Of a DNA stretch of 36,010 bases, positions 3,177-9,790 are shown piece after piece (position 1 is the stretch's first letter; every line of letters begins with the position of its first letter). The notes beneath the pieces were generated by a model that did no database searches, was not told the origin of the DNA, and saw nothing but the letters and a program-made list of their open reading frames with translations. Location of the stretch: UHGV virus genome UHGV-0022223; one strand, given 5' to 3'. The DNA is from a virus. A program made the position numbers and the translations under genes.

Positions 3177-3470
3177 ATGAAATCAGTAACTAAGCCATGT
3201 CCTATTTGTGGTGAAGGCGCTTTGTCTTTTAACCAGACAAATCAGTTGGTTAACATCAAAGTAAATCCACCAACTATTCGTGAAGTTCCATCAGTGGTTT
3301 ATGTTTGCGATACACACGGATGGTTTTCACTTTCAGAACAGATAAACAGCCTCGTTACATCAACAGACGACCCTGTGGCTAAACAAAAATTGGCAGTTAT
3401 CGTCAAAGAGCGATATGTGCCGGAACATGATCAGCCGTTAGCTCTGAAACCTATTGAGTCGCTCGCATAA
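3177..3470 (+). CDS. Hypothetical zinc-ribbon protein (CPICG...C..H), AT-rich, opposite orientation inside leftward early operon
   Basis: 97-aa ORF with RBS AAGGA; visibly lower GC than flanks; converges on and overlaps the 3451..3720 gene by 20 bp. Confidence 0.5.
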   Translation: MKSVTKPCPICGEGALSFNQTNQLVNIKVNPPTIREVPSVVYVCDTHGWFSLSEQINSLVTSTDDPVAKQKLAVIVKERYVPEHDQPLALKPIESLA

Positions 3471-3869: not shown

Positions 3870-3945
3870 TGCATATTAAGCCTGAGACTTAAATCATGTC
3901 AAGCTCCAGGCGAAATGTGATTGTAAGTTTCAGGCTTAATCGTGA
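3870..3945 (-). promoter_or_regulatory. OL/PL-like region: leftward promoter with repressor operator sites
   Basis: Minus strand reads TTGACA (plus 3897-3902), 18-bp spacer, TAATAT; operator-like 17-mers TTAAGCCTGAGACTTAA (3876-3892) and TAAGTTTCAGGCTTAAT (3924-3940) match those beside the repressor gene. Confidence 0.55.
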
Positions 3946-3964
3946 TGTTCACCGAATTGCAGGC

Positions 3965-3998
3965 AAAAAAAATCCCGACGCTAAGGTCGAGATCGGGG
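3965..3998 (-). terminator. Rho-independent terminator (minus strand) upstream of PL
   Basis: Stem TCCCGA (3973-3978) / TCGGGG (3993-3998), followed on the minus strand by an 8-nt U tract (plus A8 at 3965-3972). Confidence 0.5.
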
Positions 3999-4043: not shown

Positions 4044-4073
4044 AAAAAACCCGGCGCTGTGGCCGGGTTTTTT
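4044..4073. terminator. Bidirectional rho-independent terminator ending the moron operon
   Basis: A6, then CCCGGC-gctgtg-GCCGGG, then T6; sits just after the stop of the 34-aa ORF on the minus strand. Confidence 0.7.
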
Positions 4074-4075
4074 CA

Positions 4076-4180
4076 TTACTGCTGGTTAAATCCTTTCGGC
4101 GAGTGCTGCTGTTCTTTATTACCAAATTTTTGATTTACAATGATTTTATAAGCGTTATTGAGAGCTTGCTTTATAGACAT
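4076..4180 (-). CDS. Small 34-aa basic peptide (MSIKQALNNAYKIIVNQKFGNKEQQHSPKGFNQQ), coupled to upstream 434-aa gene
   Basis: ATG at 4180 with RBS AAGGAG 6 nt upstream, 17 nt after the 434-aa gene stop; stop followed directly by the terminator. Below the track length cutoff. Confidence 0.45.
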   Translation of the reverse strand: MSIKQALNNAYKIIVNQKFGNKEQQHSPKGFNQQ

Positions 4181-4197
4181 TAATATCTCCTTATGTG

Positions 4198-5502
4198 TTA
4201 TTGACGATTAAAGTAGTTAGAGTTTAGCTCTTTAGGGAAGTAGTGTTTACGATTTACCCAAACAAATCCATCAACTTTTGATATCACAGCGACATCAACA
4301 GGCCCACCGACAGTTTCATAATCATGTGATACTTTTCTTTTGAATGCAGTGATGTTCACTAATGATTCGGCCATATACGCAAGATCTGCCTTCCCAAGTG
4401 ATTGCAACATCGATATCATTTTATTTGTATGGTTATTAACAATATAGCTTTCAAGTTTAGTATCGTGATCTTGTAAAAGTACGTTTTTGAGTTCCTCAAT
4501 TTCACTGGAGAAGTGATTGGCTAGTACTCCATTGTTCATTGCAGGGAAAATATTGCTAGAAACATAATGATTAAGCCGATCAAAAACTTCCTCTGTAAGA
4601 GTTCTGTTAAAATTAATGATGTTAGGGTTGCACCCATCAATGAAAGTTACTACTTCATCTTCTTGAGCAAATGGTATAACAAACCCCATATTGGTTACCT
4701 CATTATGGGATTTCTCATCAATATTATGGATCATCAATTTGTTTTTAAAAATGCCGTAGATATGAAGAGTGCAAATGGAAGGGTAATATTCTTCCTCTCC
4801 ATAACCTGTTATAACAATCCCTGAATATGTACGACTAGCATGGACTTTGAAAATTAAACAAGTGGAATATAATATGACTTTTTCCATAAGCTCTTGCTGT
4901 ATATTTTCACAGTTATCAAGAACAATAATTGATGAAATGTATGGCGATATTAAATCTTGTATATATGCTAAAGCATCATTAAACTCTTCTGTATCAAACC
5001 CTTCGAAAAAGAGATTATTCCTTAAGATTCCTATCTCTAAATCAAAGGCTTGCTTAACTATGTTTTGAAAAATAACATTGTCGAGTTCAACGGCGGGGTT
5101 CATTGTTAAATAGTTTACTACATTATTATCATTAATGTATCTCATCAAACCTTTGAGGTTATCAACAACAAGGTTTATAACGCAAGCCTCTCTCATTTCA
5201 TTTGTTATAAGGTCTGAGTTACCATTGATGAATTTTACAAAGTCATTAACATATTCTTTAATGGTAGGGAAACTAGTTTTCCCCAATTGTTTTCTATAGG
5301 ATTTAATTATAAGTTCCCACGGTGCGCCACCCAGTGTCGCATTATTATAAATCATGATCCCCACGGGATGGTGTTTAGATAGTTCGAATAGTTTTTCCGC
5401 ACTATTATTTATTTTTACTAATCTATTATGCTCTGTGGTGACTGCAGAGTCAGCAGCAAGGGCGATTCCAGTATTATTTATTACAACAATCTCAGCTGTC
5501 AT
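4198..5502 (-). CDS. 434-aa protein with proteasome-beta/HslV-like Ntn-hydrolase sequence blocks and a large internal insertion; AT-rich moron
   Basis: Long ORF in strongly AT-rich DNA. Starts MTAEIVVINNTGIALAADSAVT...KLF (Thr after Met, Asp about 16 residues later, Lys before LF), has a TGYGEEE block, and ends GGPVDVAVISKVDGFV, which closely resembles the proteasome beta C-terminal strand recalled from memory. Confidence 0.8.
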   Translation of the reverse strand: MTAEIVVINNTGIALAADSAVTTEHNRLVKINNSAEKLFELSKHHPVGIMIYNNATLGGAPWELIIKSYRKQLGKTSFPTIKEYVNDFVKFINGNSDLITNEMREACVINLVVDNLKGLMRYINDNNVVNYLTMNPAVELDNVIFQNIVKQAFDLEIGILRNNLFFEGFDTEEFNDALAYIQDLISPYISSIIVLDNCENIQQELMEKVILYSTCLIFKVHASRTYSGIVITGYGEEEYYPSICTLHIYGIFKNKLMIHNIDEKSHNEVTNMGFVIPFAQEDEVVTFIDGCNPNIINFNRTLTEEVFDRLNHYVSSNIFPAMNNGVLANHFSSEIEELKNVLLQDHDTKLESYIVNNHTNKMISMLQSLGKADLAYMAESLVNITAFKRKVSHDYETVGGPVDVAVISKVDGFVWVNRKHYFPKELNSNYFNRQ

Positions 5503-5526
5503 TGCAAAACATCCCGTGTAGTAGTG

Positions 5527-5560
5527 ATAAATATTAATTAAATTGATAGTTTTTCAATCT
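5527..5560 (-). promoter_or_regulatory. Candidate promoter for the moron operon
   Basis: Minus strand reads TTGAAA (plus 5552-5557) followed 15-18 nt later by an AT-rich -10 candidate (TAATAT/TATTTA); weak RBS. Alternatively read through from the repressor gene. Confidence 0.25.
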
Positions 5561-5641
5561 AACATAAATGGCGGAATCACCCCCCAGTAAAGACATCATT
5601 GTCTCATGGGAACTAAAAATTCAGGACAAACCTAAAGCGAT

Positions 5642-6028
5642 TCAGTCCCCCTGCGAGCGAATCCGCCCCTTCATGTACTTCTCATACAGCTCATCCAGTT
5701 CCTTAAGACGTATCGAAAAGATGCGGAGCATGTTCTGTTGCTCTTCTTCTGGCAGCTGGCGGTAGAGCTCAAGCAGGCGCTGTTCGTCCGGCTTAAGTCC
5801 GTCCTTCTCGCCGACATCCTCACCGAGTAACCAAGGCACAGACACGCCAGCTGCGTCAGCGACAGCGAGAGCTGATTTCTTGCTGATCACGCCTTTTTTA
5901 AACCAGCCGTTCACAGACTGCGGGGTTACCCCAGCAACCCTGGCCATATCGGATTTGGTCATACCGCGCCCGTTCAGCTCTGAAAGGCGTTCGACAAGTA
6001 TCGGATTAAGTACGGTTTTCTCTTTCAT
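5642..6028 (-). CDS. Prophage repressor, HTH XRE family, DicA/RacR-like (no S24 peptidase domain)
   Basis: 128 aa; N-terminal HTH (MTKSDMARVAGVTPQSVNGWF) and a C-terminal LLELYRQLPEEEQ segment resembling DicA from memory; divergent from a Cro-like gene with operators between them. Confidence 0.75.
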   Translation of the reverse strand: MKEKTVLNPILVERLSELNGRGMTKSDMARVAGVTPQSVNGWFKKGVISKKSALAVADAAGVSVPWLLGEDVGEKDGLKPDEQRLLELYRQLPEEEQQNMLRIFSIRLKELDELYEKYMKGRIRSQGD

Positions 6029-6132
6029 GGTTAGAAGAATAAGCCTTTTGCTTAAATTTGAAAATTCGCCTCAGGCTTGACAATAAATTAAGTCTCAGGC
6101 TTAATTTGATTGTATTCAAATCGGAGACAACG
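6029..6132. promoter_or_regulatory. OR-like region: divergent PR/PRM-type promoters with three operator sites
   Basis: Operator-like sites at 6040-6055 (TAAGCCTTTTGCTTAA), 6068-6080 (GCCTCAGGCTTGA) and 6088-6104 (TTAAGTCTCAGGCTTAA); TTGACA at 6077-6082 gives a rightward promoter. Confidence 0.6.
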
Positions 6133-6986: not shown

Positions 6987-7895
6987 ATGTCAAACACCGC
7001 TGAAATAATCAATTTCCCAAATAAAACCGAACAACCGGGAGGTCGTATGGCCGACCTGTCGAACGGGTATACCAAGGTCGCTAACGAGATCCAACAGCTT
7101 AAGCCTCGCCTGAGACTGTCAGGCCGGGAATGGCAATGTTTTGAGGCGGTGATCTGGCTTACCTACGGCTGGAACAAGAAACAGGACCGCGTGACAAATA
7201 CGGTTATTGCCGAGCTTACGGGCCTGAGCGATACGCATGTATCGGACGCGCTTAAGTCTCTCGCAGAACGCAAAATCATCTTTTCACAGAAGCAGGGCAT
7301 GATGAAAATCGTCGGTGTAAACACTGACCTTTCAGCATGGATTTTAGACAAACCGGAAACGGGAAGAAAATTCCCGAAAACAGGAAAATCCTTCCCGAAA
7401 TCAGGAATAACCTTCCCGAAAACGGTAGACACCCAATACAAGAACAAGAACAGTATTAAAAGATCTTCGTCCGAGAATTCTGACGAATCCTCTGACGCAC
7501 GTCTGAAGAAATTTTTATCAACTCATCCTGAAGCTGCGGTCTACACACCATCCGGTGCGAAGTGGGGCTCTGCTGAAGACCTCGAGACAGCTAAGTGGAT
7601 TTCCTCCAGGGTGAAGCTGATTAACCCAACCTGCAAAGCCCCGGACATGACCTCCTGGTCTAACACTGTTCGCCTGATGCGCCAGATAGACGACCGGTCG
7701 CACCAGGACATCTGCGCGCTGTATGACTGGGCTAGCAAACACCACTTCTGGCAGACCAACATCCTGAGTCCCGAAAGCCTGCGTAAGCAGTGGGACAAGC
7801 TGACAATGCAGCGTAACGCCGGAGGTGAGCAGCGCGCTGTCAAGCCAGATCTGGACTTCAACAACACTGACTGGGCCTATGGGGTGATCCGATGA
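6987..7895 (+). CDS. O: Replication initiator, lambda O-like
   Basis: Start at internal ATG (MSNTAEIINFP...) with RBS GGAGAA; N-terminus and RMADLSNGY resemble lambda O from memory; iterons inside the gene; stop overlaps the P start. Confidence 0.75.
   Translation: MSNTAEIINFPNKTEQPGGRMADLSNGYTKVANEIQQLKPRLRLSGREWQCFEAVIWLTYGWNKKQDRVTNTVIAELTGLSDTHVSDALKSLAERKIIFSQKQGMMKIVGVNTDLSAWILDKPETGRKFPKTGKSFPKSGITFPKTVDTQYKNKNSIKRSSSENSDESSDARLKKFLSTHPEAAVYTPSGAKWGSAEDLETAKWISSRVKLINPTCKAPDMTSWSNTVRLMRQIDDRSHQDICALYDWASKHHFWQTNILSPESLRKQWDKLTMQRNAGGEQRAVKPDLDFNNTDWAYGVIR
7353..7432 (+). repeat. Origin iterons inside the O gene (about four direct repeats) followed by an AT-rich stretch
   Basis: CCGGAAACGGGAAGAA, TTCCCGAAAACAGGAAAA, TTCCCGAAATCAGGAATA, TTCCCGAAAACGGTAGAC; each encodes part of the FPKTGK-like peptide repeat. 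Confidence 0.7.
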
Positions 7896-8582: not shown

Positions 8583-8822
8583 ATGAACATAACAATCCGT
8601 GAGCAGGTGCTGGCAGCCCTGCGCAACAACCCAGGGTTGAACAACGCCAAACTGGCAGGGCTTCCCGGAGTGGTACATCATCGATCAGGACTATCGGGGG
8701 CAGAAGTACGCGAAGGACAAGCAGGTTGCGCGTTGTGGCAACGCAGTTCCGCCGCCATTCGCCGAGGCACTGGTGAGGGCTAATTTACCGGAGCTTTGTC
8801 AGCAGAAAGAGATCGCAGCTTA
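8583..8822 (+). pseudogene. Degraded gene: 28-codon N-terminal frame joined out of frame to a DNA methyltransferase C-terminal fragment
   Basis: ATG at 8583 runs into a frame change; from about 8602 a second frame encodes ...CGNAVPPPFAEALVRANLPELCQQKEIAA, resembling the C-terminal motif of DNA methyltransferases; no upstream catalytic motifs. Confidence 0.35.
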
Positions 8823-8922
8823 ATGTCCGAGTTTCAGAACATGGTGTAACAAATCCTGCTACTTCAATGACGTAGATTCAAACCTGATATAATTAGGCTC
8901 TTCACAACACGAGGAGCCTAAA

Positions 8923-9159
8923 ATGCACCATTACATGATCCCTATCAACGGAACTGTTCACCTGATCAAGACTGACTCTCTAATCCCTGAAGGGACTGAG
9001 TATAGCTTTGAAGGAGAAAGTCTAATCTGCGCTCATGCCACTTTTAAATCTGGGACGTATGGCTTCCTGATACCAAAGGGAAATCAGTTGAATAGAGAGC
9101 ATGCGTTCTGGCATGTAAGTGGAATTCACCCTAATCCCCTGGGAATGGATAAATCGTAA
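8923..9159 (+). CDS. Hypothetical 78-aa protein in AT-rich insert
   Basis: RBS GAGGAG before the ATG; perfect TATAAT at 8887-8892 upstream; lower GC than flanks. Confidence 0.5.
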   Translation: MHHYMIPINGTVHLIKTDSLIPEGTEYSFEGESLICAHATFKSGTYGFLIPKGNQLNREHAFWHVSGIHPNPLGMDKS

Positions 9160-9168
9160 TCCATAATA

Positions 9169-9205
9169 TGCATGCCATCGTCCTGAACATACGGTGGCAT
9201 GCATC
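9169..9205. repeat. Perfect 10-bp inverted repeat ATGCATGCCA / TGGCATGCAT with 17-nt spacer
   Basis: Arms at 9169-9178 and 9196-9205 are exact reverse complements; no U tract follows. Confidence 0.7.
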
Positions 9206-9270
9206 CGGCACTACAACAGAAACGTTAAAGTGCAAACAATACAATTCGAGCAATATTCAACCTGTCACAG

Positions 9271-9412
9271 ATGGCGAATACCACCGCCATTTCGTGCATT
9301 CTGTGGTTTCTATTACCCATTGCGTTAATGCTGTCCAATCATCAGCTCGCTGAGGCGCTGGTTAGGGCTAACCTACAGGAGCTTTGTCAGCAGAAACAAA
9401 TAGCAGCGTAAT
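9271..9412 (+). other. Small ORF fusing a hydrophobic N-terminus to a second diverged copy of the methyltransferase 3' end
   Basis: MANTTAISCILWFLLPIALMLSNHQ then LAEALVRANLQELCQQKQIAA; 9335-9412 is about 80 percent identical to 8745-8822. Confidence 0.25.
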
Positions 9413-9428
9413 AAAACATCGCTAATTC

Positions 9429-9457
9429 AACCCGCTACGGCGGGTTTTCTTTTTTTA
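9429..9457 (+). terminator. Rho-independent terminator
   Basis: AACCCGC-tacg-GCGGGTT followed by a T-rich tract. Confidence 0.7.
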
Positions 9458-9495
9458 CTACTGACAGAAAATTAACAATTTGTGCTCTTAAAGCG

Positions 9496-9538
9496 TTGAT
9501 CATTTCCGCGCATAGGTATACTGTATAAAAACACAGTA
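9496..9538 (+). promoter_or_regulatory. Promoter with overlapping LexA (SOS) box for the dinI-like gene
   Basis: TTGATC, about 15-bp spacer, TATACT; TACTGTATAAAAACACAGTA at 9519-9538 fits the LexA consensus CTGT-N8-ACAG. Confidence 0.75.
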
Positions 9539-9556
9539 AATGCAATGGGGGCCATT

Positions 9557-9790
9557 ATGAAAGTTGAATTAACCATTGATCGCATGAAAGAACTTCCTAA
9601 AGGCGCAGTACCAGCACTGGAGAAAGAACTGCTTAAGCGCCTGAATGATCACTATGACAATTGCAGGCTCACAATCCGCCGTGCCGGGGCCGATGGGTTA
9701 AGTGTTTTTGGTGGTGACAAGGACGATAAAAAGAAAATTGAATCAATCCTCCAGGATACCTGGGAAAGCGCTGACGACTGGTTTTATTAG
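9557..9790 (+). CDS. dinI: DinI-family DNA-damage-inducible protein
   Basis: MKVELTIDR... with C-terminal ILQDTWESADDWFY resembling E. coli DinI from memory; second ATG of the track ORF; LexA box upstream. Confidence 0.8.
   Translation: MKVELTIDRMKELPKGAVPALEKELLKRLNDHYDNCRLTIRRAGADGLSVFGGDKDDKKKIESILQDTWESADDWFY

Follow-up and report, generated by a model that had tools for sequence, protein, structure and literature searches.

The window analyzed here is a 36,010-nucleotide stretch of the virus genome UHGV-0022223. It belongs to a Rac-like lambdoid prophage of Escherichia coli, recognizable by its RecE/RecT, YdaE, YdaS, YdaT and O/P replication genes, and at positions 4044 to 5640 it carries a cassette of two minus-strand genes. 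The large gene product is, judged by its fold and active site, a proteasome-family (T1-type) threonine hydrolase of the N-terminal-nucleophile (Ntn) class, with predicted activity. The 34-residue open reading frame (ORF) that follows it, which was not annotated by PGAP, is a real and conserved partner gene. We propose, with a probability of about 0.45, that the two genes encode a threonine-hydrolase effector that would be expressed in the lysogen, controlled by the microprotein and active in superinfection exclusion or abortive infection. The two genes and the relevant parts of the large protein are located as follows.

4198-5502, minus strand: large gene, an ORF of 434 aa whose product is identical to WP_023281761.1
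4076-4192, minus strand: microprotein gene of 34 aa with its ribosome-binding site AAGGAG (4187-4192), product MSIKQALNNAYKIIVNQKFGNKEQQHSPKGFNQQ
5497-5499, 5449-5451 and 5392-5394, minus strand: codons of the putative catalytic triad Thr2, Asp18 and Lys37, assigned from conservation and hhalign
4843-5205, minus strand: helical insertion 1 (residues ~100-220), four long helices, hypervariable (DSSP)
4399-4626, minus strand: helical insertion 2 (residues ~293-368), a long helical hairpin, hypervariable (DSSP)

The structural model of the large protein showed the four-layer alpha-beta-beta-alpha Ntn fold of a proteasome beta subunit. In sequence searches, Pfam, NCBIfam and PADLOC 2023 (PADLOC-DB v2) gave zero matches for either protein, with Pfam and PADLOC searched at an E value of ≤1, and the curated Pfam Proteasome model (PF00227) left the large protein unmatched at E ≤ 1. 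The protein is labeled by PGAP as a hypothetical protein, and its sole match in PHROGs was the unnamed phrog_5990, over the full length. A phmmer search of the large protein against the PDB returned no match; in a PDB profile search, the top three matches were archaeal proteasome beta subunits, reached through the motif SGGMIDVAVITRKDGYV at an E value of only 0.67. Foldseek against BFVD gave weak partial matches to phage proteasome-like proteins and no full-length viral structure. The kinship to the proteasome is visible in the fold and the motifs and lies below standard sequence thresholds.

The active site was examined in an alignment of 56 homologues, in which the M-T-A-E N-terminus, D18, K37 and a GGPxDVAxxSK block were invariant; these features are the signature of proteasome-type Ntn hydrolases. 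With the insertions removed, the hhalign profile aligned with the Thermoplasma beta subunit from one end to the other, at an E value of 1.7e-4 in a single pair comparison, and T2, D18 and K37 (in KLFEL) were paired with Thr1, Glu17 and Lys33 (in KLFQI) of the T. acidophilum protein, whose reference sequence was confirmed in parts by the PDB alignment. Comparisons with HslV, and with the N-terminal segment alone, were not significant. Among 143 diverse representatives, 29 to 38% identical to the query, T2, D18 and K37 were each at least 95% conserved, and the N-terminus read MT[AST]E in 133. Because the threonine directly follows the initiator methionine, the nucleophile would be exposed by plain removal of that methionine, without a propeptide. 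Relatives of the large protein are numerous (6,090 at E ≤ 1e-3 among 1.84 billion representatives of 50% identity clusters), and homologues occur in phages of Stenotrophomonas, Providencia, Porphyromonas and Streptococcus.

As assigned by DSSP on the model, helical additions to the core made up about 200 residues of the large protein. The helices at residues 101 to 218 come after H1/H2 (62-94; H62-73 and H81-94), and those at 293 to 368 lie between H3 (281-289) and H4 (371-392). Mean column conservation was 0.25 to 0.44 in insertion 1 and 0.27 to 0.28 in insertion 2, versus 0.6 to 0.9 in the core. Fuchs, Alva and Lupas catalogued 22 new families of proteasome homologues in 2021, among them the PMI type ("Proteasome homolog with Multiple Insertions"), of which PMI-3 and PMI-4 carry insertions after H1/H2 and between H3/H4 (PMC8665760). 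PMI-4 is described there as large, spread over many phyla and present in phages (PMC8665760). The cassette protein resembles PMI-4 in its proteasome-beta core, its Thr1/Asp17/Lys33 triad and both insertion sites; the two families are also alike in being large, in occurring in Proteobacteria, Firmicutes, Bacteroidetes and phages, and in having no propeptide. The family of the large protein is thus probably PMI-4, matched by the published description and the model rather than by sequence. The same authors argued that the insertions would be incompatible with the formation of rings and double rings and might serve to bind interactors; they gave no function for the PMI proteins and mentioned no partner gene (PMC8665760). 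The microprotein partner, the preference for prophage cargo slots and the hypervariability of the insertions are reported here and are absent from that paper (PMC8665760). The first-pass annotation of this DNA had called the gene pair a candidate undescribed accessory or defense system, which is borne out in part: no published account of its function was found and the partner gene is missing from that paper, but the large protein fits the PMI-type homologues.

The partner gene was examined in 82 loci with a homologue of the large gene, namely the window, contigs from IMG/VR, and prophages of Klebsiella and Serratia. The large proteins of all 82 begin with [ML]TAE, and an ORF of 34 to 67 aa follows the large gene in 81. 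In 79 loci this ORF starts with ATG, usually with a Shine-Dalgarno sequence, and its first codon lies -22 to +30 nucleotides from the stop codon of the large gene; 2 further loci have a GTG or TTG start and the same peptide family, and the lone exception is a truncated copy. In the window, the AAGGAG site stands 7 nucleotides 5' of the ATG, which itself lies 17 nucleotides past the stop codon of the large gene. In a Streptococcus satellite phage, the next ORF after the large gene is likewise a small one, of 55 aa with a GGAGG site and unannotated, and the small gene was called by independent annotators in Providencia, Proteus, Vibrio, Celerinatantimonas and Serratia. In Klebsiella prophages (L004-L006, 7292-7726), a called opposite-strand ORF of 128 to 144 aa, without any family match, overlaps a conserved 35-aa microprotein gene (7331-7438, plus strand); the longer ORF is probably a spurious call that masks the true small gene.

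The microproteins diverge very fast, yet they fall into groups with short conserved motifs: NAYKxLxxxKF in the group of the window, ELREWQKKFNP...F[SC]W in a second group and QPKSVKDFF...NFFTKL in a third. Clear purifying selection was detected in close within-group pairs, for example with nonsynonymous/synonymous differences (pN/pS) of 0.12/0.71 and 0.09/0.78. All 35 dereplicated partners were strongly hydrophilic with a net positive charge (median +4), and none of the 35 contained a signal peptide, a membrane helix or a hydrophobic segment. Judged by these sequences, the microprotein is a basic, cytosolic and almost obligatory partner of the large protein.

The surroundings of the cassette in the window are given below.

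5642-6028, minus strand: repressor gene (HTH_3, DicA-like), directly upstream of the cassette and on the same strand
5530-5557, minus strand: predicted sigma-70 promoter of the cassette, from a consensus scan
4044-4073, minus strand: intrinsic terminator 1, a perfect 12-bp inverted repeat AAAAAACCCGGC/GCCGGGTTTTTT
3963-3994, minus strand: intrinsic terminator 2, a 9-bp stem (3971-3994) followed by T8
3872-3940, minus strand: region resembling the leftward operator and promoter (OL/PL), a TTGACA-18-TAATAT promoter (3873-3902) amid operator-like palindromes

On the minus strand, the repressor gene (6028-5642) is followed by a 139-nucleotide spacer, the 434-aa ORF (5502-4198) and the 34-aa ORF (4180-4076), and no terminator was found between the repressor gene and the cassette. 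The predicted promoter has its -35 element TTGAAA at 5552-5557 and its -10 element at 5530-5535 (AATATT) or 5531-5536 (TAATAT). Terminator 1 begins right after the stop codon of the microprotein gene and forms a hairpin of -18.9 kcal/mol (z = -4.7) with an A-run and a T-run on its sides. The operator-like palindromes, TTAAGCCTGAGACTTAA, are found at 3875-3891 and 3924-3940 and are repeated at 6061-6108, the rightward operator. No RNA family was found in the window by Rfam. Because of the positions of the repressor, the palindromes and the promoter, the layout is that of the lambda cI-rexA-rexB-OL/PL region. The GC content of the cassette was 0.338 against 0.521 for the whole window, and the lowest value of any nonoverlapping stretch of the same length elsewhere was 0.446; GC at third codon positions was 0.31 in the cassette and 0.59 to 0.62 in the neighboring repressor, ydaT and replication genes. 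The first-pass annotation had read this region as an AT-rich two-gene cassette with two terminators, placed between the repressor gene and OL/PL in the slot equivalent to rexAB, and both the gene positions and the composition bear this out. Its identification of the slot as an accessory one is also supported, as sister prophages carry different cargo between the same flanks, and its remark that the pair resembles no named defense system agrees with the empty PADLOC 2023, Pfam and NCBIfam searches. With its own predicted promoter and terminators, its deviant GC content, and its presence or absence among related phages, the region 4044-5640 is supported as a discrete accessory cassette (moron) in the rexAB-equivalent slot.

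An A-tract at 5550-5554 (minus strand) lies at the junction of the -35 element and the spacer of the predicted promoter, about 50 nucleotides 5' of the start codon, and varies in length among 16 otherwise near-identical copies: A7 in 13 of the 16, A6 in 2 and A5 in the window. With A7, the promoter reads TTGAAA-17-TAATAT; with A5, the spacer is cut to 15 or 16 nucleotides. The tract could serve to tune expression or to vary it by phase, or it could reflect neutral slippage. Its length also sets whether an upstream ATG is in frame, and PGAP therefore calls proteins of 434, 466 or 467 aa. The database versions of 466 and 467 aa were considered as a propeptide form and rejected, since these start-codon calls are set by the length of the A-tract. 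In addition, a patch of about 25 nucleotides 5' of the cassette, GTGATTCCGCCATTTATGTTAGA in E. coli (window 5561-5580) and TTGATTCCGCAACAATGATTAGA in Klebsiella (L004/L005, ~5925-5950), is conserved amid nonalignable noncoding DNA. It misfits the spacing of a sigma-70 promoter and may be a regulatory element carried along with the cassette.

In complete genomes, the neighbors of the cassette are the RecE/RecT, YdaE, DicA-like repressor, YdaS, YdaT and O/P-type replication genes. The cassette was carried by about a dozen of 5,426 complete E. coli genomes, and a near-identity DNA search of phage GenBank matched the flanks without the cassette. In the same slot, between flanks that are nearly identical, other Rac-like prophages have two or three genes unrelated to it: a 211-aa coiled-coil-like protein and a 101-aa protein in one (L002, 3001-3947), and proteins of 141, 127 and 107 aa in another (L003, 3014-4141). 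None of this sister cargo had a Pfam match above the curated cutoffs or a PADLOC match, and the slot is therefore not proven to be a defense hotspot; the sister proteins count as further candidates in it. A search for the same gene pair found it in other prophages, in satellites and in nonphage islands. In Klebsiella prophages, a pair with 70% identity comes right after a cI repressor of the unrelated S24 type. When the neighbors in 50 dereplicated loci were counted by Pfam family, two recurrent sites emerged. One is downstream of the repressor, with HTH_3 (15), Peptidase_S24 (10) or CI_repr (6) on the upstream side; the other extends from the antiterminator Q (14) to the holin and lysozyme genes, where the pair is often on the strand opposite to the late genes. 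Lambdoid phages have two classic slots for lysogenic conversion, and these sites correspond to them. In all full-length loci examined, the large gene had a lower GC content than its flanks, with one low-GC locus (L085) tied.

Beyond the two recurrent sites, the pair lies in the accessory end of the Streptococcus satellite, beside RelBE. In a nonprophage island of Celerinatantimonas (L095, 10120-11907), genes for a DUF3024 protein and a 272-aa reverse transcriptase are found downstream of the pair; the DUF3024 protein matches the PADLOC candidate PDC-S43 with an E value of 2.6e-51, and these neighbors suggest the context of a small defense island. In Vibrio vulnificus, the pair stands beside a PLD/DrmC-like protein and adjoins the remnant of a filamentous phage. 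Altogether, the pair moves as a unit between prophage cargo slots, in phages and satellites and across several bacterial phyla.

The cassette protein was then compared with known systems. The 20S beta subunit, HslV, BPH and Anbu are self-compartmentalizing T1 peptidases, whereas the cassette protein is about twice their size and has helical insertions that should clash with rings; it further differs from them in being encoded on a mobile element together with a microprotein and in lacking a PF00227 match. HslV is a compact subunit of about 175 aa, against 434 aa for the cassette protein, and works with the AAA+ partner HslU; no HslU or other AAA+ gene was found among the neighbors of the cassette, which are phage regulatory or lysis genes. 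Like the cassette, lambda RexAB and BstA of Salmonella phage BTP1 are variable cargo located downstream of the repressor and upstream of OL/PL, and are likely transcribed in the lysogen. They show no kinship to it in sequence or fold: neither a RexB-like transmembrane segment nor a BstA-like KilA-N domain was found in the cassette proteins, and the chemistry predicted for the cassette is proteolysis or amide hydrolysis rather than ion-channel formation or DNA binding. Proteases that serve as anti-phage effectors include Lit and CHAT/caspase-like, Lon-like and trypsin-like enzymes of CBASS, type III CRISPR and gasdermin systems. Their logic, a latent protease that is triggered by infection and acts on a defined target, is the one proposed here for the cassette. 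No effector in that list is known to have a proteasome or Ntn fold, a threonine nucleophile or a partner that is a basic microprotein of 34 to 67 aa.

In the proposed mechanism, the cassette would be expressed in the lysogen, driven by a promoter of its own and also by transcription that reads through from the repressor gene, as the predicted promoter and the lack of a terminator after the repressor gene lead one to expect. The insertions would serve as a specificity or lid domain and would probably block ring assembly, as Fuchs et al. argue (PMC8665760), which would make the enzyme a specific protease and not a bulk degradation chamber. The microprotein may dock on the variable insertions and silence or tune the enzyme. 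Superinfection would then free the active enzyme, either by way of a phage protein or because a labile microprotein is lost, and the freed enzyme would cut a defined phage or host protein, so that phage development stops. The core is conserved while both the insertions and the partner are hypervariable, as one would expect of a sensor in an arms race. The hypothesis of a defense or exclusion role is based on the position of the cassette, its mobility, this hypervariability and a few of its neighbors.

Several points weigh against such a role. The literature that was searched contained no link from this family, or from any proteasome-like or Ntn protein, to phage defense, and nothing was found in it on WP_023281761.1 or on the function of the family. 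Neither protein matched a model of PADLOC-DB v2 (2023 release), and neighbors of a defense type outside prophages were limited to two loci. The canonical Gly47 and Ser129 are not conserved, N53 and an AQEDEV motif standing at the aligned positions. In phages of Providencia and Proteus, the pair is on the late-gene strand, between Q/Dam and holin, and these copies may leave room for expression in the lytic cycle.

The late-strand copies are what would be expected if the pair served lytic growth or entry, for example by cleaving an immune or regulatory protein of the host, as counter-defense or host takeover, with the microprotein as an adaptor, and the small proteasome homologues PPH and AAH are known phage genes (PMC8665760). 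However, the pairs of the window, Klebsiella, Serratia and Stenotrophomonas share the orientation of the repressor or oppose that of the late genes, with terminators of their own, and the pair is dispensable among sister prophages and present on satellites and nonphage islands; we consider a lytic function improbable. Much the same low weight is given to a toxin-antitoxin-like addiction module that would stabilize the prophage, satellite or island without any anti-phage role. An operon of two genes, in which a large enzyme is joined by a small partner that evolves fast, the RelBE neighbor in the satellite and the occurrence on mobile elements of many kinds all fit such a module. The order of the genes does not, as the enzyme precedes its small partner; a DNA-binding domain is missing from the partner, and the strong preference for two lysogenic-conversion slots is more typical of conversion or defense cargo. 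Many toxin-antitoxin modules are abortive-infection systems, so this alternative overlaps with the exclusion role that we favor.

The main rival, also unlikely if less so, is that the pair processes or ligates peptides, with the microprotein as a substrate that is cleaved, or transferred in the manner of connectase, to give a mature peptide, tag or toxin that would bring about the phenotype. Connectase, a monomeric archaeal enzyme and sequence-specific protein ligase, is a non-ring proteasome homologue with a helical lid that confers substrate specificity and a short recognition motif and offers a precedent for a specific, nondegradative activity. It has lost H1/H2 and is defined by a two-helix insertion between S3 and S4, whereas the cassette protein keeps H1/H2 and has only a short, low-confidence loop (25-32) between S3 and S4 in the model. 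The microproteins, without a signal or hydrophobic segment, are unlikely to become a secreted signal or a membrane toxin, and their motifs change completely from group to group, against a catalytic core that hardly varies. Finally, the protein could be a catalytically inert scaffold of proteasome fold, like the alpha subunits, that acts solely by binding. The loss of Gly47 and Ser129 and the missing Pfam Proteasome match agree with this, but MT[AST]E in 133 of 143 representatives and the conservation of T2, D18 and K37 at 95% or more would be unexpected without catalysis, and we regard an inert scaffold as highly improbable.

Two other candidates were rejected. An arbitrium-like receptor with a propeptide does not fit microproteins that lack a signal or hydrophobic segment, nor a large protein with an Ntn fold instead of TPR; a RexB-like or holin-like membrane mechanism was set aside because the microproteins have no hydrophobic segment.

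Two further regions of the window were noted. A plus-strand ORF at 3177-3470 encodes a 97-aa zinc-ribbon-like protein (phrog_31519) with a CPxC motif near its N-terminus. It is on the strand opposite to the leftward early operon, in a region whose GC content is lowered to 0.43 to 0.46, and may itself be a small moron; sister prophages carry a different plus-strand gene of 64 to 68 aa near the equivalent position. The second region, at ~8784-9558, spans about 770 bp from the replication-region genes to a DinI-like gene (9545-9790) and has a GC content of 0.42 to 0.45. The matching RefSeq genome has no annotation there, the ORFs are all short (e.g., 78 aa, 8923-9159), and Rfam gave no match.

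Proteasome homologues beyond HslV and the 20S core have been a long-standing puzzle, and Anbu, BPH and the 22 families of 2021 are without an assigned function. The cassette makes one of the largest orphan proteasome families testable, as a 1.6-kb unit with a predicted triad that can be mutated. It also brings in a partner microprotein that earlier annotation had missed, in a cargo-slot setting that suggests conflict between phages. Should the exclusion role prove false, the pair would still be a compact model of a microprotein that controls or feeds a proteasome-like enzyme. If it is true, the threonine Ntn hydrolase would be a new effector chemistry in bacterial immunity and another immune component whose ancestry is shared with a core eukaryotic machine. 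More tentatively still, and with some doubt on our part, the cassette may be the founding case of a new class of immune modules, borne by phages and satellites, in which a non-ring, proteasome-derived threonine protease would sense the invader through its hypervariable insertions and be restrained by an obligatory, rapidly co-evolving microprotein; in that event, an orphan branch of the proteasome family with more than 6,000 clusters would gain its first function.

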